DNA of 39,782 nt. Source: Planctomycetota bacterium (GTDB taxonomy: Bacteria > Planctomycetota > MHYJ01 > JACQRL01 > SBBU01). Shown here one piece after another: positions 14,351-39,404 of this stretch. The notes beneath the pieces were generated by a model that saw only the letters and a list, made by a program, of their open reading frames with translations, was not told where the DNA came from and searched no databases. Numbering within the stretch: position 1 is the stretch's first letter; each line of letters begins with the position of its first letter. Where the stretch lies: contig JACQRL010000039.1 in the NCBI GenBank assembly GCA_016206485.1, positions 1 to 39,782 on the forward strand. The letters run 5' to 3'. A program made the position numbers and the translations under genes.

Positions 14351-16777
14351 ATGTCACAGTTTATACTGACATCAATTTTGCTTTTGTTTCAAAACGGTGA
14401 AGAAGTCGGATTTGACCTGCTTTATGATCAGGAAAGAGTTGAGCAGGAGTTGATATCCTACAGTAGCGCCAGAAACTGGCCTGCATTTCTGAAAAAAATT
14501 AAAAAGGTGGTCTCGGAATATGAAGGGAAAATCTGCGTCGTCGACTCTAAGTATGTTTCATTTAATGTATGGCTTAGAAATCTGCTCAGTCACATGGGAG
14601 CCGAGACGATCTCCATATTTCAGCGTGAATTTGCGCCGGATTACAAAGTTGAATTTGGAAAGGCGCTTTCCTCTGCGGATATCAGCAGGTGTCTTTCACT
14701 AATAGACAGGTTTTTTGTATGCAAAGAAACCCCTGATTTTGTCTTAAAATTAACCAATCAGCTTGTTGAAAAAGGACAGCTCACGACTGCTCTGCTGGTT
14801 TTTGAGGGTCTGATCGGCAGGTATGATCTGGAGATCAAAACGAGGGAGCTGGTTCAGGCGAGAATTAATGATCTTAAAAAACATGTGCGATGGGATTTTT
14901 CATATCCGAGGGCTCAGTTTCCTGTCTTCACTAATATGGGTTTATCTGACGAGCCGTCATCCAGATATTGCTCGATTGATGAGATCGCGGCAGGTATTGA
15001 GAATTATAAAAAGCAGTCGCTCTGTCTCATGGAAAAAACAGCGTCTGTAAAATTAGATCTTTCTTACAAAAGGTCTGAAGATGTTTTTGTTGTTCCCGCG
15101 ATTGATCCGGTTTCAGATAAAATGCTTGTGAATAATGGATTCAACTTCAAGCTGGTTGATTTGAAAAGACTTGATCCAACCGCCTCTCCCGGCGCTGAGC
15201 CGCATGTATTATTATCTGTCAGCAATAATGCGGATCAGCATGCCAATCAGCCCTCACTCGCATCTTCACAGTTCAAGATGCTGCCTTCAGTTATGTCGGG
15301 GCTGCTTGTCAGGAATTACTTGATCGTCAATCAGGTGGTAAGCTTCAACATCAACAATATCTATACAGCCAGCCAGCATCTGGTGTGTTACGAACTTTCT
15401 CAGGATGATAATTCGGTTGTCGCAAAGAAATTATGGAGTCTTAAGGAGACCGGTTCTGAGGATCTGAAAACATTTTTAGTCTCTTTTATTCCCCCGTTTG
15501 TGAATTCCGGTGACTCCCTGGTTTCTGTTGTCATGAAGAGAAGGATAAACAAATATGGCGGTGTTCAGAGCTGTGAGCTGTATATATACTGTTTTGATAT
15601 AAAAAATGGGGCAGTTCTCTGGAAAAGACAGCTGGACAGCTATCCTCTGTATTTTTACGGACAAAGAGCAAAAATAAGCTATCCATATATCTTTGTCACT
15701 GATGGTCTTATTAATGTTGTATTGCCGCATTCGTTCACGGTGTACAGGTTCACATTCAGCGGCGAGTTGGTCGGCTTTGACACCTTCTTTAAGAAGAGGA
15801 CTTCCGCTAATGATTTTCCTCAGCAGGGATTTACTTATGGACAGCAGAGCCAGGTCTTTATTATGCCGAGATGGTTTCTGGCAGAAGGAAAATTCTTTTT
15901 CGCGGATGATAATGATATTTACAAAACTGACTTTGTAGGTTTTAACCCTGTTGTACAGATGAGAATAAGCGATGTGAAGGCGCTCATTGCGGTAGACAGG
16001 AAGAAAGTTTCCTTTGTTGATAAGTCTGGACACCTTGCCTTTTTTTCTGTTACAGATAGCGCTCCGGAGGTGTTCAGCGATCCGGTTACAAAAATCAACG
16101 AACCATTTTGCGCGACAGACAGGCATGTATATTTTGTTGAAAAGCGGGAGGGCAAAAACGATCTTATAAGCATCAATCTTGATAACCTGATGATATGCTG
16201 CAGCACAAGTTTCGAAGGGGCTGAGCTGCATTCCCCGACCTATTATAAGGATTTTGTCATAGCTTCTTCTATAGAAGGAGCTCAGATATTCAGGTCGCTT
16301 GAAATCGAGCTTGAACTTGCCAGGAAAAATTCAGCCGGCGGGGAAGCAGATATAACAAGACTTCTTACTCTGTTAAACAGGGTATTTGAAAGGGCCTGTA
16401 TAAGAAATGTAAATGACCTTTATTTGAGGACATTACCGAATGAATTTGCCGATAATTTCAGCCGGCTGAAACAACCGGAGCAGAAAGAATTTGCGGCGTT
16501 TCCGAGATTTATAGTTTCCGCGATTTCAGAAAAGAAGATCTCTTTTAATGCAAAGGTGCTTAAACTTGCGCTGAAACTTTCCTCTGATACCAGGGAGCAG
16601 ATCAAGATAACAAACGAATTAATCGGTCATTACTCTGACAGAAGTCGATTTAGCTGCGCATTCTACAGATTTTATAAGATCTGTGTTGAGGTAGGCGCTC
16701 AGGATTTTAAGACTGCCTGGAAGGACACGGCTGAGCTGGTAAAATTTCTGCGGACACAAAATCGCAGGGTAAAGTAA
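14351..16777 (+). CDS. large hypothetical protein: helical N- and C-terminal regions flanking a PQQ/BamB-like beta-propeller-like core
   Basis: 808-aa ORF with ATG start. Central strings such as HLVCYELSQDDNSVVAKKLWSL and IYCFDIKNGAVLWKRQL resemble PQQ-like propeller blades. Coding status is strong; function is unknown. Confidence 0.6.
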   Translation: MSQFILTSILLLFQNGEEVGFDLLYDQERVEQELISYSSARNWPAFLKKIKKVVSEYEGKICVVDSKYVSFNVWLRNLLSHMGAETISIFQREFAPDYKVEFGKALSSADISRCLSLIDRFFVCKETPDFVLKLTNQLVEKGQLTTALLVFEGLIGRYDLEIKTRELVQARINDLKKHVRWDFSYPRAQFPVFTNMGLSDEPSSRYCSIDEIAAGIENYKKQSLCLMEKTASVKLDLSYKRSEDVFVVPAIDPVSDKMLVNNGFNFKLVDLKRLDPTASPGAEPHVLLSVSNNADQHANQPSLASSQFKMLPSVMSGLLVRNYLIVNQVVSFNINNIYTASQHLVCYELSQDDNSVVAKKLWSLKETGSEDLKTFLVSFIPPFVNSGDSLVSVVMKRRINKYGGVQSCELYIYCFDIKNGAVLWKRQLDSYPLYFYGQRAKISYPYIFVTDGLINVVLPHSFTVYRFTFSGELVGFDTFFKKRTSANDFPQQGFTYGQQSQVFIMPRWFLAEGKFFFADDNDIYKTDFVGFNPVVQMRISDVKALIAVDRKKVSFVDKSGHLAFFSVTDSAPEVFSDPVTKINEPFCATDRHVYFVEKREGKNDLISINLDNLMICCSTSFEGAELHSPTYYKDFVIASSIEGAQIFRSLEIELELARKNSAGGEADITRLLTLLNRVFERACIRNVNDLYLRTLPNEFADNFSRLKQPEQKEFAAFPRFIVSAISEKKISFNAKVLKLALKLSSDTREQIKITNELIGHYSDRSRFSCAFYRFYKICVEVGAQDFKTAWKDTAELVKFLRTQNRRVK

Positions 16778-20357: not shown

Positions 20358-22052
20358 ATGAGAATGGGAGTTTTTTTATCTAAATACTTAGTAGTAACTC
20401 TGTGTGGTTTAGTATTTGATATTCAAATAACAGAGGATGACTACAACGATCTCGTAAGACAATTATCAGACAAAAATCCTACTATTAGAGGAAGAGTGTT
20501 TAATAAACTTGTTGGATGTTGGGAGGCAGATGACATACTTGATTTAATCAGTAGGTCTATAGAGTCTGCGAAGCAGGATGGCAACTCCTTTTTAACTGAA
20601 ATCCTATCACAGATTAAAACCTGTATCATTAATCGAAAGGAGTTGGGAAGCGAATTAGTTGAGATATTTACTGACAAAGTGGATGAAATGTGCAGCTGGA
20701 GTGAGGATTTTTTAGTATTATTTTTCACGAGGCAGATAAATCAGCACATGGGAGGCTTGGTAAAGGATACAAAGACATGCGAAGTGTTTGCAAAGTGGTT
20801 ATTTGGGCGCTTAAAGTCACATAGCGCTAAAAGGAACTTTATTGATGCCATAGGGGATAATTTTTTGGATAAATCACCACTCCAGATACCGAATGGAAAA
20901 GAGTTGCTGGTCAAGCTACTGAAAGACACAGATACAAAAGTCAAGGCCAGTGCTTTGGGAACACTTTATCGTATGGATGTTAGAGACCCTTACAAAGAGA
21001 TTGTTGATCTGACAAAAGATAGTGAGCCTATGATAAGACTTAGTTCAGCAAGGTACTTAGTGCGAGCAGATGCTGAGAAATTCGGCGATAAGTTAGCCGG
21101 ATTGCTGAATGATGAATTATTGTACATAAGAATGTTGGCGGTGGAAAAAATTGCTGAAAATGGATTGAAACAGTATTCAGGTCAGATTGCTGTGCTTCTC
21201 GATGAGCGATTATATACCGATTATAAACCTATAGAGAAAAAATTTGCGATTATTGGGGATATTGAAAAAATCTTTGGCGGTGTTAACGCTTTAAAAAAAA
21301 GCGCTATTGCCGCCCTTGGAACTTTGGGCTCTAAAGAATTTGTAAAAGAAGTAGGAAATTTTTTGAAGCACGACAACATTTCATTGAGGCTAGAGGCGAT
21401 GAGATCGCTTGCTAAATTAAGAGCCTTTGAATATATACCTGAAATAGGGAGTTTCCTTAAGCATAACGAGATCCAATTGAGGGTAGAGGCAATTAAATTT
21501 CTTGGCGAGTTAGGAGCTGTGGAATATATTGATGAGATGGTGATTATATTACAGTCGGAAAATCACTATGATATTCAACTCGAAGCGGTAAGGAGTCTGC
21601 ATTTGTTTGGAGCAAAGGAATATATAGAACAATATATAGATAGCACAAAGAAATTGGATACAGATTCTATTACGACCTTATTAACTATTTTAGGCGATGT
21701 CAAAGCCAGAGAATTCTCTAATTTTGCCGTGGAATGCTTGGCAGATGAGAAATGCAGGGTAAGAGCTATCAGGACATTAGGAGATATGGGTATTAAAAGA
21801 CATGCCAAAGATATTGCCATATATCTTAGAGATAGTAGTGCGGAAGTTAGGATAGCAACAATTGAAGAATTAGGATCGCTAGATGCAGTTGAATATACAA
21901 AAGAAATTGCTGAACTTGTAAGTGATGAAACTGTTGTTAGTTCTGGTTGGTTGCATAGTCCTCCCAAAATCGTTAAAGAATGCGCTTTGAAAGTGCTTAA
22001 AAAATGGAATGTCGATATAAAACAACTGCAGAAGGAAAATAAAACTAAATAG
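20358..22052 (+). CDS. HEAT-repeat (PBS-lyase-type) protein with N-terminal signal/anchor
   Basis: 564-aa ORF with a hydrophobic N-terminus (FLSKYLVVTLCGLVF). Many ~31-aa repeats follow, for example FLKHDNISLRLEAMRSLAKLRAFEYIPEIGSFLKHNEIQLRVEAIKFLGELGAVEYIDEM and LRDSSAEVRIATIEELGSLDAVEYTKEIAELV. Confidence 0.75.
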   Translation: MRMGVFLSKYLVVTLCGLVFDIQITEDDYNDLVRQLSDKNPTIRGRVFNKLVGCWEADDILDLISRSIESAKQDGNSFLTEILSQIKTCIINRKELGSELVEIFTDKVDEMCSWSEDFLVLFFTRQINQHMGGLVKDTKTCEVFAKWLFGRLKSHSAKRNFIDAIGDNFLDKSPLQIPNGKELLVKLLKDTDTKVKASALGTLYRMDVRDPYKEIVDLTKDSEPMIRLSSARYLVRADAEKFGDKLAGLLNDELLYIRMLAVEKIAENGLKQYSGQIAVLLDERLYTDYKPIEKKFAIIGDIEKIFGGVNALKKSAIAALGTLGSKEFVKEVGNFLKHDNISLRLEAMRSLAKLRAFEYIPEIGSFLKHNEIQLRVEAIKFLGELGAVEYIDEMVIILQSENHYDIQLEAVRSLHLFGAKEYIEQYIDSTKKLDTDSITTLLTILGDVKAREFSNFAVECLADEKCRVRAIRTLGDMGIKRHAKDIAIYLRDSSAEVRIATIEELGSLDAVEYTKEIAELVSDETVVSSGWLHSPPKIVKECALKVLKKWNVDIKQLQKENKTK

Positions 22053-32859: not shown

Positions 32860-35175
32860 CTAGTTAAATATCTTCTCTTTATATTTCTCCGCTTCTTTTT
32901 GCAGTTCGTTCAGACTTGAATAAAACCAGTCAACTCTGTGTTCTTTGCCAGTGATTTTGTTTAACGACATGTAGGCGATGAGCCTTGTCCAGGGATCAGG
33001 ATCTGCCAGAAAATTCAGGAGAATCTTCTTAACTTCAAGAGATTCAAAGTTGCTTAAAACTTTTACAAGGGCGCGATAGGTATGGATTCCACATTTTTCT
33101 TTTATAACTGCTGAGTTGCGTAGCTGTGCAAGAATGTATTTCTCAATCTCCGGAGAAGAACGATTTATAAAGAGTTCAATTATTGTCTCCATGATATGAG
33201 TTGTTGATCCAAGTGCGGCTTTTACCAGCTGTTGTTTCTGTTCAGAAGATGGAATTTGGTTAGAAGAGTTGGAAGAGGGAATGCCCGCCAGGCTTTTGAG
33301 CATGGTTTTATTAGCCATCTCTACAAGCTGCGGGTCAGAGAGCTGTCCTGAGGTTCCCAGATAGAAAATCGCAAGCGCTGCAAGATGCTGTTCATCCGCG
33401 TTTTCAGATAGATAAAGTTCCGAGATCTTCTTAAGTTTTGAGTCAATGACATTAATTATCTTTTCGTTCTTTATATCGAGCATTTTAATGTATCTTATGA
33501 CTCTGTCGATCAGGTGGACAGGCAGAGAAAGGTCATTTAATACCGTCATTGAAAGTTCAGGAAACGAATCGGGATAATTTCTGAAGTAAGTGAAAAGAGC
33601 TGCAAATAAAACCTGATCATCTTCAAACGCCGATAAAAGCAGCTGTTCGAGAAAAGCCTTCCCGTATTTTCCAAGTCCCGGAAGCGTTTCAATAAGAAGT
33701 ATCCTGACAGAAGGCTCAAAATCGCTTAAGGCATAGCGAACAGGTCTTGCGTTTCTGATTGGGCTTGGTTTTTGAAGATAACTTCGTTTGCTTTTGCTTA
33801 GGATATACTTTGCTGTTTCAAGCTTTTCCATGTATTTTTTCATGCTGGTTTTTTCTCCGCTTAGAGCCAATGACATTTCAAGAAGCTGGCGTAAAATTTT
33901 AAGTTTGGCATTGGGCACATAACTGTCAGCTGGGTTTTCAAATTTAGGAGCGGGAGAGTCAATAATCCACTTCAGTTTCAGAATGTTTTTCTTCATTTCA
34001 TTGCACATGTCAACGAACTTTTTGGCAGGATCAGAGGAGTCTTTATCAAAACATTTTAGGGAGGCCTTCATGAGTACAAGCACTTTTTCAAAATCTCCGG
34101 TAGTTCTTGCGTCATCCAGCATCTCGACGAGAATGCCAAATGCCTTTTTGTGTGACAGTTTTGCCAGGGAGTTGATAAACGCTATTTGAAATACGGTATC
34201 AGGTTCATTTCTAACCTTGTCAGTCAAAAATTGCGGGAGTTCCTGAAATCCTGACATTGTCAGAAAATACAATGCGCGCGCCCTTTCGATGGCATCTTTG
34301 CTGTTTTTTAATACCTCGAAGAGGTCCTGCATCGGATCATATTTTTGAATTGTGCCGAGATAATAAACCGCGTTTCTTCTGACCCTTTTACTCGGATCTG
34401 AGATCAGTCTTCTGACGTGCAGGTAGAGATCTCTTTCAGGAAATAAGCTGAGTCCGTACGCAAATCTGGAGGTCAGAGTAAAAGGATAGGATTTTGTGAG
34501 CTCGGATGAGATTATGCGGCTTATCATAGTGCTGTATGGATCGCCAAGATTAAGGAAGTTTGGAACTTCTTCCGCGACGCCCATATAAGCGGTCGCCATC
34601 TTGAAAAACTCACGCAGTTTGTCCTGAAATTCCTTTATAGTAATGACCAGATTTGAGGAAGGAAGCCCGAGAAGCAGCAGAGAAAATATCTCTTCGTTAT
34701 CGAATGTTCTGTTGCTGTGAAAATATTTTAGGAGCATTCGGTTAAAACATTTCAGATTAGATTCCAGGAGTGTCTGTTCTGAATCAGAATAGGAGGTATG
34801 CGAAATAGCAGAGGCTACAGGGTCAGATTCGAGCAGGACTCCTTCTATCCAGGGATGATGGCTTGAAAAGTCTTTTGTGGTGATTCCGCATTCACTGATG
34901 AAATCATAGTTGATGGGAGGTGCTGGAATGTTAGCAGGTGGAGGGGTCATCTTTTTCTTATCCGCTGGAGGCTTCTTTGGTAAAGGTCCAGTCTGCTGGC
35001 CACCTTCTTCTTTGTCAGCAAGATTGCCTCCTCCGGTTTGAATTATCCTAAGCTCATCTGTGACCGTAATCATGGGTTGGAAATTTGTTATAGAATCGAA
35101 AGGGTCTCCCGGCGGAAGCAGGATATCCATATCCATCAGGATGATTAAAGAGAATATAGAAAAAATCTTCTTCAT
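32860..35175 (-). CDS. secreted HEAT-like repeat protein, paralog 1 of a divergent pair
   Basis: 771-aa ORF with a signal-like N-terminus, then DMDILLPPGDP..ITNFQP and a Pro-rich segment. HEAT-like units follow (SDPSKRVRRNAVYYLGTIQKYDPMQDLFEVLKNS; LADPDPWTRLIAYMSLNKITGKEH). Alignable end to end with 36145..38481. Confidence 0.65.
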   Translation of the reverse strand: MKKIFSIFSLIILMDMDILLPPGDPFDSITNFQPMITVTDELRIIQTGGGNLADKEEGGQQTGPLPKKPPADKKKMTPPPANIPAPPINYDFISECGITTKDFSSHHPWIEGVLLESDPVASAISHTSYSDSEQTLLESNLKCFNRMLLKYFHSNRTFDNEEIFSLLLLGLPSSNLVITIKEFQDKLREFFKMATAYMGVAEEVPNFLNLGDPYSTMISRIISSELTKSYPFTLTSRFAYGLSLFPERDLYLHVRRLISDPSKRVRRNAVYYLGTIQKYDPMQDLFEVLKNSKDAIERARALYFLTMSGFQELPQFLTDKVRNEPDTVFQIAFINSLAKLSHKKAFGILVEMLDDARTTGDFEKVLVLMKASLKCFDKDSSDPAKKFVDMCNEMKKNILKLKWIIDSPAPKFENPADSYVPNAKLKILRQLLEMSLALSGEKTSMKKYMEKLETAKYILSKSKRSYLQKPSPIRNARPVRYALSDFEPSVRILLIETLPGLGKYGKAFLEQLLLSAFEDDQVLFAALFTYFRNYPDSFPELSMTVLNDLSLPVHLIDRVIRYIKMLDIKNEKIINVIDSKLKKISELYLSENADEQHLAALAIFYLGTSGQLSDPQLVEMANKTMLKSLAGIPSSNSSNQIPSSEQKQQLVKAALGSTTHIMETIIELFINRSSPEIEKYILAQLRNSAVIKEKCGIHTYRALVKVLSNFESLEVKKILLNFLADPDPWTRLIAYMSLNKITGKEHRVDWFYSSLNELQKEAEKYKEKIFN

Positions 35176-35348
35176 ATTTCTACTATACAGTACAGACGCG
35201 CGTTTTGTCTCACTGTATTATATCAGTATTCTAAGCATTTTTTTACCCTGATTGTTTAAAGCAAATCTGGGGTTTTCTCTGTGATTTTGTGGCTATTCTG
35301 TGTCTTTGTGGAAGAGATTTGTTAAACATTGTTTAAAAGTTTAAAAGG

Positions 35349-35939
35349 TTAAAAGTGAGGGCTGATGGTTGGCAGAAGCTTTTTTACCGCCTTTCCTCTG
35401 TGGCTGATTTTGTTTTTTTCCTCTGGAGATAATTGAGCGGTTGTCTTTCCGAGCTCTTTGACATAAAAGATTGGATCATATCCAAAGCCATTTGTACCCT
35501 CGGATTTTGAGTTTATGTATCCATAGCATCTGTCACTGCTGACTGCAAAAATCTTTCCTTTGTAACCAAAAATACATACTGCTATGTAGTATGTCTTTCG
35601 CTTTTCAAACGGGATTCCTTCCAATTTTTTCAGCAAAAGCTCATTGTTATCCTGAGATGCAGCATTTGCACCTGCAAATCTTGCGGAGCGCACTCCGGGG
35701 GCGCCTTTTAGAAACTCGACGCATATCCCGGAATCTTCTGCGAATACTGGATAGGTAACCAGACTGGAATAAAACACGCACTTACTTGCGGCGTTTTCAA
35801 AGAATGTTTTTCCATTTTCAGGGGCGATGTTTTTTATCCCCGCTTCATCAAGTCCGACCAGATCCGCGTTGATTTGTGCAAACAGTGATTTGAACTCGCG
35901 CAGCTTTCCCTTGTTACCAGTCGCAATAAGCAGTCTCAT
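35349..35939 (-). CDS. rdgB: RdgB/HAM1 family non-canonical purine NTP pyrophosphatase
   Basis: 196-aa ORF with LLIATGNKGKLREF, GTNGFGYDPIF and ISHRGKA motifs. Confidence 0.92.
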   Translation of the reverse strand: MRLLIATGNKGKLREFKSLFAQINADLVGLDEAGIKNIAPENGKTFFENAASKCVFYSSLVTYPVFAEDSGICVEFLKGAPGVRSARFAGANAASQDNNELLLKKLEGIPFEKRKTYYIAVCIFGYKGKIFAVSSDRCYGYINSKSEGTNGFGYDPIFYVKELGKTTAQLSPEEKNKISHRGKAVKKLLPTISPHF

Positions 35940-36144
35940 AAATTGTAGAGACTATGACATAGCCCGTAGAAGACAAGTAAATTTGAGTGGAACACGACGC
36001 CATTTTGTGCCCGGTACCATCTCTTATCTGTGGAATTCGCCCAGATCTGTGCAATCAGTGAAAGAGTTTTATCAAAGGACCATTATATATGGTGGATATT
36101 ATAAGTATTTTATCTGGTGCTGGGTAAATGTTGTTTATATTATT

Positions 36145-38481
36145 ATGGGGTTGAAATTGACAGTGCTTAAGATCTGGCGGTTGAAGTATCTAGCCTTCAT
36201 CTCTCTTTTATCTTTTTGTTTTTGTCTTGATATGGATATTGATATTCCTCCCGGGACTCCAACAGAGATAATCTCAAATTTCCAGCCTTCAGTGACAATT
36301 ACCACGGATATGAAACTCATTGAAACACAATCAGGCACACCTACACAACCTAATGATGGCGAGAAAGTTGAGAGAAGAGGAACCGAAGTAAAAAAACAGA
36401 TTGTGCTTCCTCCTAAGGCGCCGCCTCCTGTCAGCGCGGGATTTTTTGAGGCGACAGGCATCACCACGATAGATTTCCCCGGACACTATCCTTGGGCGTC
36501 AACACTTAAATCAGGACTGGATCCGATAGCGGAAGATCTTGCTATTTCAGGTTATACACAGGAAGAAAAGATTAAAAGTTGGAAGCCAAAACTCATTCCA
36601 TACAGCGATCCGAAGAACGCAAAATATGAAGCGTATTTAAAATGTTTTCAGAGAATTCTGATCAGATATTTTCACCTCAACCGTACTTTAGAAAATGAAG
36701 ATATTTTTTACTTTATGCTTTTCGGTGATCCTCCGGCATCTTTTGCAGCATCCATTAATGAGGTGAAGAAGGATCTGAAAGAGTACTGCGGCAAAATAAT
36801 GAGCTATCTTGATCCGGAAACAAAACAGCCTGTCATTCCGGGAATGCCGGATGATTACAGTCTCATGATGTATACAATTGTTTTATCAGAGCTTGTATAT
36901 TATTATCCTTTCACAGTTAACTCTCCGTTTGCTCCGGGACTCGATCACTTTGCTTCGGAAGAAATTTACCCTCACCTTAGATCAATGCTCAAAAGCACTA
37001 ATAAACGTGTAATGAGAAACGCTGTGTATTATCTCGGAACAATGCAGAAGTATGATGCCCTTGCAGAACTGTTCAATATCCTTCAAAACAGTTCTGATAA
37101 AGTTGCACGCGCGAGATCTCTGTATTTTCTCACTGCATCAAGCTATCCGGAACTCGCATCATACCTAATAAGCCAGCTTGATTCTGAAAAAGATCCTGTA
37201 TTTGAAGTTGCTTTTCTAAATGCGCTTGGAAAGCTCGGGGATAAAAAGGCATTTCCGGGGCTATGCAAGAAAATAATTTCTATGGCTTCTGCCTACGATT
37301 ACGAAAAGTTGATTGCTGCTGTCAAGGCATGCGCCAGATGTGTTGACAAGCGTGACAAGGAAACTCTTAAACAGCTCGCCCAGCAGATTTTAAAGATTCA
37401 TTCTTCTCTTGAAGGCGCAGCATGGGCAGGTGAACCGGAGACCCCCGACCTTGCTGTTCCTGCTGATAGTTATAGGGGTGACGCAAGGCGAAAAACACTG
37501 AAGGAAGTTTTAGAAATCTCGCTCGCCGCCTGCGGTGAGAAGCAGGCTTTGGGAGATCTCCCTTCAAAATTCGAAGAAATCATCAACAGACTCGAGACTC
37601 CTAAAAAAAGAGCCGTCAATGCAGGCGCTGTCGGAGGCTCTCCTCCTATGGCATTGGGAAGTTTTGATGTCCTCAACAGATTATTTCTTGTTGAGGTTCT
37701 GCCGGAGATGGGGAAGACAGGGAAAATTCTCCTTGAAAGACTCCTTCTCAGCGGTTTTGAACATGATAATGTCCTGTTTACCGCGCTGAACACCTACTAT
37801 CGATATTATCCCGATGACTTTGAAAAACTCGCATTGCAGATACTGATTCTTAACAAAGAGCTTCCTGTGCCTCTGGTTGATAAAGCTCTTAAGTATATGT
37901 ACTTTACAGATCTGAAAGATGATAAGACCAAAAAAAATCTTGATAAGATTCTGAATATGCTGGTTATGGAGTATGGTCCTCAGCAGGACCTGTCTTCAAA
38001 GCACCTGTCTACACTTGCGGTGTTTTATTTGGGACTTGGAAAGAAGTTGAAAGAGAAGATTTTGTCATCGATAATTGACAGTGAGCTCAGGGAGCAGAAA
38101 CCCGAACCGGTAACAAAGGAACAGGATCCGCCTCTTCTTGGCTTAAAAATAGAACCGACAAGCAGTCTGATAAGAATCTGTATTGAGATGCTGGGAAGAA
38201 TGAAGACTGTAGATGCTGAAAAAGCGCTTCTCAAGCTCGCTAAAAAAATAACGGATATCGAAAATAAAAGGATCCTTGCCAAAGCTCTTGGAAATTTCAC
38301 GTCCAAAGAAGTTAAAGCTGAATTGATCGAAATGCTTTCTGATAAAGACAGCTGGACACGTCTTATTGCCTATCTTTCATTGAGCAGAATTACCAGAAAG
38401 GAACACAAAATCGACTGGTTCTATACAGATCTTGATAAACTAAAACCTGAAATTGAAAAATATAAAACTGTCCTAAATTAA
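36145..38481 (+). CDS. secreted HEAT-like repeat protein, paralog 2 of a divergent pair
   Basis: ATG at 36145 gives MGLKLTVLKIWRLKYLAFISLLSFCFC, signal-like, followed by LDMDIDIPPGTP..ISNFQP as in the paralog. The ORF-track start at 35827 would overlap rdgB antisense and encodes low-quality sequence. HEAT-like units include KSTNKRVMRNAVYYLGTMQKYDALAELFNILQNS and LSDKDSWTRLIAYLSLSRITRKEH. Confidence 0.65.
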   Translation: MGLKLTVLKIWRLKYLAFISLLSFCFCLDMDIDIPPGTPTEIISNFQPSVTITTDMKLIETQSGTPTQPNDGEKVERRGTEVKKQIVLPPKAPPPVSAGFFEATGITTIDFPGHYPWASTLKSGLDPIAEDLAISGYTQEEKIKSWKPKLIPYSDPKNAKYEAYLKCFQRILIRYFHLNRTLENEDIFYFMLFGDPPASFAASINEVKKDLKEYCGKIMSYLDPETKQPVIPGMPDDYSLMMYTIVLSELVYYYPFTVNSPFAPGLDHFASEEIYPHLRSMLKSTNKRVMRNAVYYLGTMQKYDALAELFNILQNSSDKVARARSLYFLTASSYPELASYLISQLDSEKDPVFEVAFLNALGKLGDKKAFPGLCKKIISMASAYDYEKLIAAVKACARCVDKRDKETLKQLAQQILKIHSSLEGAAWAGEPETPDLAVPADSYRGDARRKTLKEVLEISLAACGEKQALGDLPSKFEEIINRLETPKKRAVNAGAVGGSPPMALGSFDVLNRLFLVEVLPEMGKTGKILLERLLLSGFEHDNVLFTALNTYYRYYPDDFEKLALQILILNKELPVPLVDKALKYMYFTDLKDDKTKKNLDKILNMLVMEYGPQQDLSSKHLSTLAVFYLGLGKKLKEKILSSIIDSELREQKPEPVTKEQDPPLLGLKIEPTSSLIRICIEMLGRMKTVDAEKALLKLAKKITDIENKRILAKALGNFTSKEVKAELIEMLSDKDSWTRLIAYLSLSRITRKEHKIDWFYTDLDKLKPEIEKYKTVLN

Positions 38482-39404
38482 AAATCCTGACTGTCTTCCT
38501 GCGTTTCTTCTGACTCATCAGGATCATCAGGCTCTTCTGAGCTTCTGCCCGATTTTTTTATTTGTTCGTGAAGGTCAAGCATGAATTTTTTCCAGTCTTC
38601 TGTCATCTCTTTGTAGGTGACACCTGTCTGATCAAATGCGCTTTTGAGCGCCTTGTCATATCTTTTTTCCTTTAATTCTTCAAGCAGAATCCCAAAAAAT
38701 TTTCTGTATTTGCCCTGCTGAGAGGAATCGGATTCGATGAGAAATTTACACAGTGACCATGCAAGGGTGTAATCTTGTACATTAGTCTCGAAAGGGGTGA
38801 AAACTTTTTTGAGGTTAAACTTCCATTCAATCTTCTGCATGTTTTTAACTACTTTAATAAGTTTGCTTTCAGGGAGAAATATCCTGTTTATTTTTTCTTT
38901 ATCTTCATCAAGCTCTATGCCAGCAAAGTAGACTGCGAGTCCCTCTTTTATCCACCCCGGCAGATGTGCCTCACAAATATCATAGACCAGATCTGTGTAA
39001 AAATGAAAAAACTCATGCATAATGATGTGATATTTAGTGTACAGCTTTTGCTGATTTTCAGGTATTGTGTACAAAGTTTTTTTGATTGGAATATATACTC
39101 CGTTTACTTTTATCTGAAAATTAGGAACCTCTTTTTTTATGGTCGCATTCATTTCCTTAACATCATCGAACAGTTTAATTGTGCATTTGAAATCATGCTG
39201 GGGTTGGAGCTCAGGAAGAACAGTCACATACAGCTTCTGAATTGCATCGAGAATGCGAGATATTTCTTTGACTTCTTTGTCGCTGAAATCTTTATATTTA
39301 ATTGTAAAATTTGATCCGCTATAGCTTTTCCACTCATCCTTCCCAGCAGTTTTTTTATCGCCGTCTGAGATCATGAGCGAGAGCAGGAAAATAAGTTTCT
39401 TCAT
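38478..39404 (-). CDS. secreted HExxH protein, DUF1570-like (peptidase MA-like), with acidic C-terminal tail
   Basis: 308-aa ORF with a signal-like N-terminus. IIMHEFFHFY...HLPGWIKEGLAVYFAG and DYTLAWSLCKFL fit the DUF1570 pattern as I recall it. The tail reads SSEEPDDPDESEETQEDSQDF. Confidence 0.6.
   Translation of the reverse strand: MKKLIFLLSLMISDGDKKTAGKDEWKSYSGSNFTIKYKDFSDKEVKEISRILDAIQKLYVTVLPELQPQHDFKCTIKLFDDVKEMNATIKKEVPNFQIKVNGVYIPIKKTLYTIPENQQKLYTKYHIIMHEFFHFYTDLVYDICEAHLPGWIKEGLAVYFAGIELDEDKEKINRIFLPESKLIKVVKNMQKIEWKFNLKKVFTPFETNVQDYTLAWSLCKFLIESDSSQQGKYRKFFGILLEELKEKRYDKALKSAFDQTGVTYKEMTEDWKKFMLDLHEQIKKSGRSSEEPDDPDESEETQEDSQDF

Follow-up and report, generated by a model that had tools for sequence, protein, structure and literature searches.

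A putatively exported HEAT-repeat protein family of uncultured Planctomycetota, linked in some relatives to multiheme cytochrome genes

What are the two large, similar proteins whose genes flank rdgB in the genome of an uncultured Planctomycetota bacterium, and do they form a unit with the gene between them? Here, we address this question for contig JACQRL010000039.1 of assembly GCA_016206485.1, positions 1 to 39,782, the whole of which was analysed and is referred to as the window. An initial annotation, made from the letters of the window, had noticed two divergent open reading frames (ORFs) of about 775 aa, called copies A and B below, and had considered either an inverted duplication around rdgB or a two-component extracytoplasmic scaffold. 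The rdgB-bracketing pair turns out to be no special unit. A and B belong to a HEAT-repeat family with a new N-terminal module, undescribed in the literature found, whose genes in several relatives immediately precede a multiheme cytochrome gene or a gene for its heme-less C-terminal domain. Because of this adjacency, we propose that the family comprises periplasmic adaptors or scaffolds tied to partner cytochromes, with A and B as two members, a reading that we consider on balance probable.

The resemblance of the two proteins proved as extensive as first described. BLASTP aligns A and B over ~780 columns, from the signal peptide through the last helix, with 37% identity and 56% positives (E 1e-165), and both translations contain every motif quoted for them, namely DMDIxxPPGxPxxxIxNFQPxxTxT, GITTxDFxxHxPW, LKCFxRxLxxYFHxNRT, KRVxRNAVYYLGTxQKYD and WTRLIAYxSLxxITxKEHxxDWFY. 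Their description as HEAT-like also stands, A scoring 61.1 bits with Pfam HEAT_2 and 27.3 with HEAT, and B 77.4 and 23.5 (gathering cut-offs 27.7 and 23.5), and the gene between them is indeed a Ham1/RdgB homolog. Above gathering score, Pfam returns only HEAT_2 and HEAT in both proteins, from about residue 240 on; membership in PF13646 (HEAT_2) and PF02985 (HEAT) agrees with both the scores and the alpha-solenoid fold.

The pair is part of a much larger set. A search of the assembly itself (a metagenome-assembled genome, MAG, of 3.45 Mb in 458 contigs, 80.6% complete) recovered at least 11 full-length paralogs on nine contigs, with pairwise identities of 29-52% (median 33%). All 11 share the N-terminal motif D-[AML]-[DE]-[IV]-x-x-P-P-G-T, a Pro/Lys-rich segment of the LPPKAPPP type and HEAT repeats, with GITTxDF and KCFxRxLxxxFHNNR likewise part of the common architecture and with an aligned C-terminal cap, DxDxWTRLIAYxSL...DWFY. 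Family-wide, the N-terminal motif takes the near-invariant form D-[LAM]-[DE]-[VI]-x-[VIL]-P-P-G-[TS]-P-x-[DE]-[WI], and about 14 HEAT-like repeats precede a cap that reads W-[TV]-R...Y...L...DW. In copy A the motif is DMDILLPPGDP; in copy B, residues D29, P35 and P36 are invariant across the 24 family members of alignment A5. A His within the FHxNR helix is near-invariant as well, and the linker that follows the motif varies in length and composition among the family alignments. Most paralogs of this genome also carry a CxxC pair in one solenoid helix (B residues 396-399, KACARCVD) and a conserved Cys in KCF, neither of which is kept in distant relatives.

The initial annotation had held that the N-terminal module belongs to no characterised family, and the searches agree. 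Positions 1-245 of the N-module profile match nothing in Pfam or the PDB, the matches being confined to the last ~30 positions of the profile, which form the first HEAT repeat, and NCBIfam holds no above-threshold family for either the module or the full protein. The best matches of a profile search in the PDB were MTH187 and the artificial alphaRep proteins, which represent the PBS-type HEAT consensus. Several known classes were considered and rejected. Membership among the E/F-type bilin lyases or NblB is contradicted by scores of 18.8-44.2 bits with the NblB, CpcE and CpcF models (NF058502, NF058515 and NF045915) against cut-offs of 220-330, and by the presence of putative export signals, those proteins being cytoplasmic. 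A membrane-coat-like protein of the Planctomycetes-Verrucomicrobia-Chlamydiae (PVC) type would have an N-terminal beta-propeller, which is missing here, with no WD40 or propeller match in Pfam. The Imm-HEAT immunity proteins of polymorphic toxin systems are small, cytoplasmic and encoded beside toxin genes (Zhang et al. 2012, PMC3482391); the present proteins, with putative export signals, more than 700 aa and housekeeping neighbours, do not fit among them.

All 11 paralogs begin with a basic n-region and a hydrophobic stretch of 11-20 residues, as do the relatives, and V/I/L-x-A stands directly ahead of the motif in five of the 11. A regular-expression search of the first 45 residues gave no lipobox ([LVI][ASTVI][GAS]C) in any paralog, A and B included, which led us to reject a bacterial lipoprotein, an alternative that the initial annotation had left open. 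A c-type cytochrome is necessarily periplasmic. Given the signal-peptide features and a partner cytochrome that must lie in the periplasm, export of the family to the periplasm is reasonably inferred, in line with the secretion first suggested for A and B from their N-termini.

An AlphaFold2 (AF2) model of mature B, built from 24 sequences including relatives, reached a predicted local distance difference test (pLDDT) of 84.4 and a predicted template modelling (pTM) score of 0.89. It shows a continuous helical solenoid over residues 128-750, with about 30 helices, and in the N-terminal 245 residues the model has a docked peptide, followed by a disordered linker (residues 24-59), short helices and one hairpin. 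The first 20 residues, which hold the invariant motif, have a pLDDT of 83-87 and form a beta-bridge and a short helix, suggesting that the N-terminal motif packs back onto the folded body. Foldseek, run against the PDB, retrieved nothing but generic solenoids (alphaRep, beta-catenin, Kap123 and SF3B1) with template modelling (TM) scores of at most 0.3, and thus no functional lead.

Beyond this genome, relatives were available for comparison at class level at closest. A scan with an alignment of the genome's own paralogs (A1) was overly specific and found nothing, and a first search for protein homologs gave three, generic HEAT proteins dominating the result. With an alignment of three sequences, all 13 named related loci proved to be from uncultured Planctomycetota MAGs. 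A profile built on the first 280 residues (A4), used for the class and phylum scans, matched 13 of 56 genomes in the class and 19 of the 301 in a phylum-wide sample. Matches to the N-module always fall inside open frames of ~480-1340 aa, and full-length ORFs recovered at related loci span ~700-830 aa. The distant homologs (680-830 aa, 20-28% identity) have the same C-terminal cap, and their motif is usually DLDVGVPPG(T/S)PLEW. Copy number is 11 here, nine in genome G016 and one to four elsewhere. Moreover, a full-length profile run against 1.84 billion representative proteins gave 34 matches below 1e-30, the closest dozen being the genome's own copies and a handful of metagenome sequences; the many matches weaker than this are generic multi-repeat HEAT proteins. 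Within these searches, the family is firmly shown to be restricted to uncultured Planctomycetota. Its N-terminus is not uniform throughout: in family f10 (loci L011, L014 and L015) a His/Gly/Pro-rich sequence (HGGGPHGG...PPPPPP) replaces the DLDVxVPPG motif and the linked partner has lost every heme motif, while G034, also of f10, and G015 keep a degenerate motif, again with a heme-less partner.

The cytochrome partner emerged from an all-against-all comparison of neighbouring genes, followed by a directed look downstream. In three loci (L023, L027 and L034), the next gene after that of the family, at distances from a stop overlap to +52 nt, encodes a protein of 319-480 aa with an N-terminal membrane anchor, five or six CxxCH motifs (Pfam Cytochrome_C554/C7) and a non-heme C-terminal domain (C-domain) of ~125 residues. 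In four others (L011, L014, L015 and L016), the downstream gene encodes a membrane-anchored protein of 130-182 aa that has no CxxCH and is homologous to the C-domain only. The DNA downstream of each family copy detected in the two genome scans was then taken. Of these 50 unique copies, all in relatives, 14 have the partner directly downstream on the same strand, from a stop overlap to ~300 nt away: eight cytochromes with five or six CxxCH and six heme-less C-domain proteins. One further copy has a cytochrome ~770 nt upstream. Linked pairs occur in at least 13 genomes, which belong to several families and to more than one class. Since six linked partners are heme-less, the conserved element is the non-heme C-domain, and these partners argue against a role in heme attachment.

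Presence of the partner follows presence of the family within the class, where the C-domain occurs in 13 of 13 family-positive genomes versus 8 of 43 family-negative ones. The eight family-negative carriers are all the genomes of genus g10, whose partner homologs (335-720 aa) score more weakly (e.g., L082:2553-4715, G009); no HEAT-family copy was found in the genus g10 genomes, either near these homologs or elsewhere. The genome studied here encodes two 344-aa pentaheme homologs (C109:2937-3971 and C48:14530-15564), which match curated cytochrome models and PDB 5ze8 weakly. At the first of these loci (C109:2525-7760, L080), a 135-aa protein with one CxxCH is encoded upstream, equivalent to the stretch by which the hexaheme version of relatives is extended at its N-terminus, and after the pentaheme gene comes one whose 1256-aa product ends in a TolB-like propeller.

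Several observations weigh against the adaptor reading or parts of it. Linkage is found for just the 14 copies out of 50, with about 38 of the 50 having at least 600 nt of downstream sequence, and in this genome none of the 11 copies adjoins either partner-type cytochrome. The multi-copy genomes G016, G047 and G020 lack a linked copy, though each keeps one partner gene elsewhere, and no family copy was found beside the unlinked partner cytochromes of G009, G024, G047, G016 and G020. In the phylum sample, the C-domain is present in 92 of 301 genomes, 13 of 19 that are family-positive and 79 of 282 that are family-negative, so that co-occurrence at this level is an enrichment and not exclusive; related genomes in all these counts are, moreover, not independent samples. 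As for export, the signal-peptide calls are heuristic (charge plus an uncharged stretch), and the -1 residues of A and B are M and L, which do not satisfy the usual signal peptidase I rule. Docking of the motif comes from a single AF2 model and is read from per-residue confidence only; an earlier model with 10 paralogs had a pLDDT of 64.8, with the N-terminal 225 residues unresolved and the motif segment of low confidence.

Is the pair, then, organised around rdgB? A duplication centred on this gene, or a dedicated scaffold of A plus B, would account for two adjacent, divergent copies alignable throughout, and tandem or nearby copies do occur elsewhere. A maximum-likelihood (ML) tree places A as sister to a copy on another contig, C218 (support 99/100), with five copies forming a tight clade and B standing alone. 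When metagenome sequences were added, external sequences interleaved among this genome's paralogs, and a JGI fragment has 65% identity to B against 32-38% to the other copies, which points to duplications that predate the split from other organisms. A and B are ancient paralogs, as had been proposed. Tandem arrays are common in the family: genome G016 carries three copies in a row and contig C369 of this genome two nearby ones, so the family evidently grows by local duplication, judging from gene order. On the contig of that JGI fragment (L087, 1-1498, JGI 3300045950), the closest external one, the B ortholog (61-65% identity, apparently with a non-ATG start) comes after a second family gene in the same orientation, of which the 3' end is present and which groups with C218 (96/95), A being the next sister. 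The vicinity of an A/C218-clade copy to B, seen in two organisms, may therefore be an old neighbourhood, perhaps ancestral to both clades, of which rdgB is not part. No Ham1 sequence lies on L087, and tblastn found no rdgB at the 22 related loci checked (most with 6-kb flanks). Since the paralogs number 11 rather than two, A's sister lies elsewhere, and the L087 copies are tandem instead of inverted, with B's neighbour there the C218 ortholog rather than that of A, an rdgB-centred origin is largely refuted already, and both this origin and a dedicated two-protein scaffold, for which no evidence was found, strike us as very improbable. An origin of the pair by local duplication, one half of the earlier idea, is plausible; its centring on rdgB is unsupported. 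We regard the A-rdgB-B arrangement as a leftover of local duplication and rearrangement, with rdgB incidental and no functional unit formed.

Two further explanations concern the cytochrome itself. The adjacency could be a historical accident, the family being a generic exported HEAT scaffold with another envelope role, such as binding of cell-wall material, polysaccharide or protein. The partner is missing next door for 36 of the relatives' 50 copies and for all 11 copies here, so this explanation stays alive; the C-domain is, besides, widespread in the phylum irrespective of the family, and Planctomycetes have numerous uncharacterised alpha-solenoid paralog families (PMC3837014). An accident would nevertheless have to arise again and again, in 13 or more genomes from several families and classes, on the same strand and often with overlapping genes or gaps below 70 nt, to persist where the partner has lost its hemes, and to coincide with the 13-of-13 co-occurrence within the class, and we therefore consider it possible though unlikely. 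Alternatively, the proteins could be periplasmic maturation factors or chaperones for multiheme cytochromes, either as HEAT counterparts of the TPR apocytochrome chaperones CcmI/NrfG or as relatives of the E/F-type bilin lyases, likewise built of PBS-type HEAT repeats, that handle tetrapyrroles. Linkage to c-type cytochrome genes, the near-invariant His in the FHxNR helix and a repeat of the PBS-lyase type, with its weak NblB/CpcE/CpcF and alphaRep matches, would suit such a function. The six linked partners that keep the adjacency with no CxxCH do not suit it, nor do lyase scores of 19-44 bits against cut-offs of 220-330, and 11 copies for two cytochromes would be odd for a dedicated maturase, leaving this idea improbable.

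Under the favoured adaptor reading, the family proteins would be Sec-exported alpha-solenoids of ~700-830 aa residing in the periplasm, where the acidic, PPG-containing peptide behind the signal peptide would pack back on the folded body. Their task would be that of an adaptor or scaffold: each would bind to the partner's C-terminal domain, and the solenoid surfaces, which have diverged between paralogs, would recruit different clients. What the analysis shows directly is that the copies are paralogs, how many there are, how they are built, in which taxa they occur and which genes adjoin them; that they are exported, that the N-terminal peptide docks in cis, that they contact the cytochrome physically and that they serve as adaptors is inferred. 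A bolder version, which we offer tentatively and rate as doubtful, holds that the proteins are soluble, interchangeable subunits of an unrecognised periplasmic module, in which the membrane-anchored pentaheme cytochrome, or the heme-less C-domain as its relic, forms the common base, the DLDVxVPPGTPxEW peptide a shared clasp and the solenoids paralog-specific surfaces. If so, this iron-oxidiser-like MAG would hold, in its 11 copies, an adaptor repertoire routing electrons or clients to different partners.

Table 1. Features of the rdgB region of the window and of the two family proteins that it encodes
Feature	Position	Strand	Basis
Family copy A, 771 aa	32860..35175	-	ORF, translation, Pfam HEAT_2 61 bits
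Copy A N-terminal family motif, aa 15-34, DMDILLPPGDPFDSITNFQP	35074..35133	-	Homologous to relatives' DLDVxVPPGTPxEW
Copy A putative signal peptide, aa 1-14 (MKK + IFSIFSLIILM)	35134..35175	-	Heuristic: 2 K/R + 11 uncharged residues, no lipobox
rdgB, Ham1-family nucleoside triphosphate (NTP) pyrophosphatase	35349..35939	-	PF01725 E 4e-56
Family copy B, 778 aa, A-like architecture	36145..38481	+	ORF, translation, HEAT_2 77.4 bits, AF2 model
Copy B putative signal peptide, aa 1-28	36145..36228	+	Heuristic: 4 K/R + 14-residue uncharged h-region, no lipobox
Copy B N-terminal motif, aa 29-48, DMDIDIPPGTPTEIISNFQP	36229..36288	+	Alignment A5 invariants; AF2
Predicted disordered Pro/Lys-rich linker of B, aa 52-87	36298..36405	+	pLDDT 31-42, no secondary structure
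Rest of family-specific N-module of B, aa 88-245, with GITTIDF and KCFQRILIRYFHLNRT	36406..36879	+	Profile positions 1-245 without Pfam or PDB match
HEAT/ARM-type alpha-solenoid of B, conserved WTRLIAY...DWFY cap at end	36880..38478	+	HEAT_2, 4 stretches; alphaRep profile matches; Foldseek

Within the window (Table 1), rdgB and A are co-directional with a gap of 173 nt, and rdgB and B are divergent with a gap of 205 nt. A longer frame for B, starting at 35827, is not credible, as it would overlap rdgB in antisense. Convergent with B lies a Peptidase_MA_2/DUF1570-like gene (38478-39404, minus strand), the two stop codons overlapping by 4 nt. This gene and an aminotransferase gene were compared by tblastn with the 22 related loci, where the DUF1570-like gene does not stand beside family copies. 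Farther away, the window encodes a 564-aa protein (20358-22052, plus strand) with a HEAT_2/HEAT_PBS score of 88 bits, which is unmatched by the family searches and represents a separate family, and an 808-aa ORF (14351-16777, plus strand) with no Pfam match at E<=1e-5.

The surroundings of the 11 copies of this genome differ from locus to locus and consist mostly of housekeeping genes. A conserved neighbour was sought around them and not found, none of them has a co-directional downstream gene, and a scan for promoters and terminators stayed at chance level. The copy on contig C300 (G000:C300:4807-7911, L020) is 1034 aa long and continues after the cap with an extension of ~265 residues containing an RHS repeat (PF05593), the only fusion seen within the family. 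The copy on contig C139 (G000:C139:14900-16873, L021) ends at 657 aa without the cap, 99 nt before the contig end, which may reflect truncation, a frameshift or an error of assembly.

An earlier survey (Fournier et al. 2013, PMC3837014) reports that Planctomycetes have unusually many alpha-solenoids, with families of up to nine uncharacterised paralogs per genome and unexpected PBS-type HEAT proteins among them. For its families it describes neither the architecture nor an export signal, an N-terminal motif or a link to cytochromes; our literature search found no paper describing this family or a link between HEAT proteins and cytochromes. Almost none of these eukaryote-like planctomycete solenoids has a proposed role. 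The present family is now defined by its N-terminal motif and module, a confident fold model, its taxonomic range and a recurrent cytochrome partner, turning a "hypothetical HEAT protein" into a testable hypothesis on how the periplasm is organised, or electron transfer scaffolded, in an uncultured lineage that possesses genes for Cyc2-type iron oxidation as well.

Like the eukaryotic superhelices Kap123, beta-catenin, SF3B1 and PP2A-A, which are among the top Foldseek matches, the family members combine comparable length with superhelical repeats, and a flexible terminal peptide joined to a solenoid, as in importins and beta-catenin, would by analogy suggest binding of the peptide in a groove. 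With TM scores of 0.2-0.3 and identities of 11-17%, however, this is a generic resemblance of fold and not homology, and the cellular setting of these HEAT/ARM proteins is wholly unlike the bacterial periplasm. The repeat type itself, and the all-alpha solenoid built from it, are shared with PBS-lyase-type HEAT proteins (HEAT_2/HEAT_PBS, MTH187, alphaRep, CpcE/F and NblB). Those proteins are cytoplasmic, mostly 130-300 aa long and devoid of a signal peptide, whereas the present ones are probably exported, measure 700-830 aa and carry the ~245-residue N-module with the DLDVxVPPGTPxEW motif, which is in no curated model. A further parallel is offered by CcmI and NrfG, periplasmic tetratricopeptide repeat (TPR) chaperones of c-type cytochromes that act in System I maturation. 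In both cases, an alpha-solenoid that is periplasmic, or probably so for the present family, is genetically tied to c-type cytochromes; CcmI and NrfG, however, are TPR proteins encoded in Ccm and Nrf operons, whereas the family described here is built from HEAT repeats, is also linked to heme-less partners and reaches 11 copies in a single genome.

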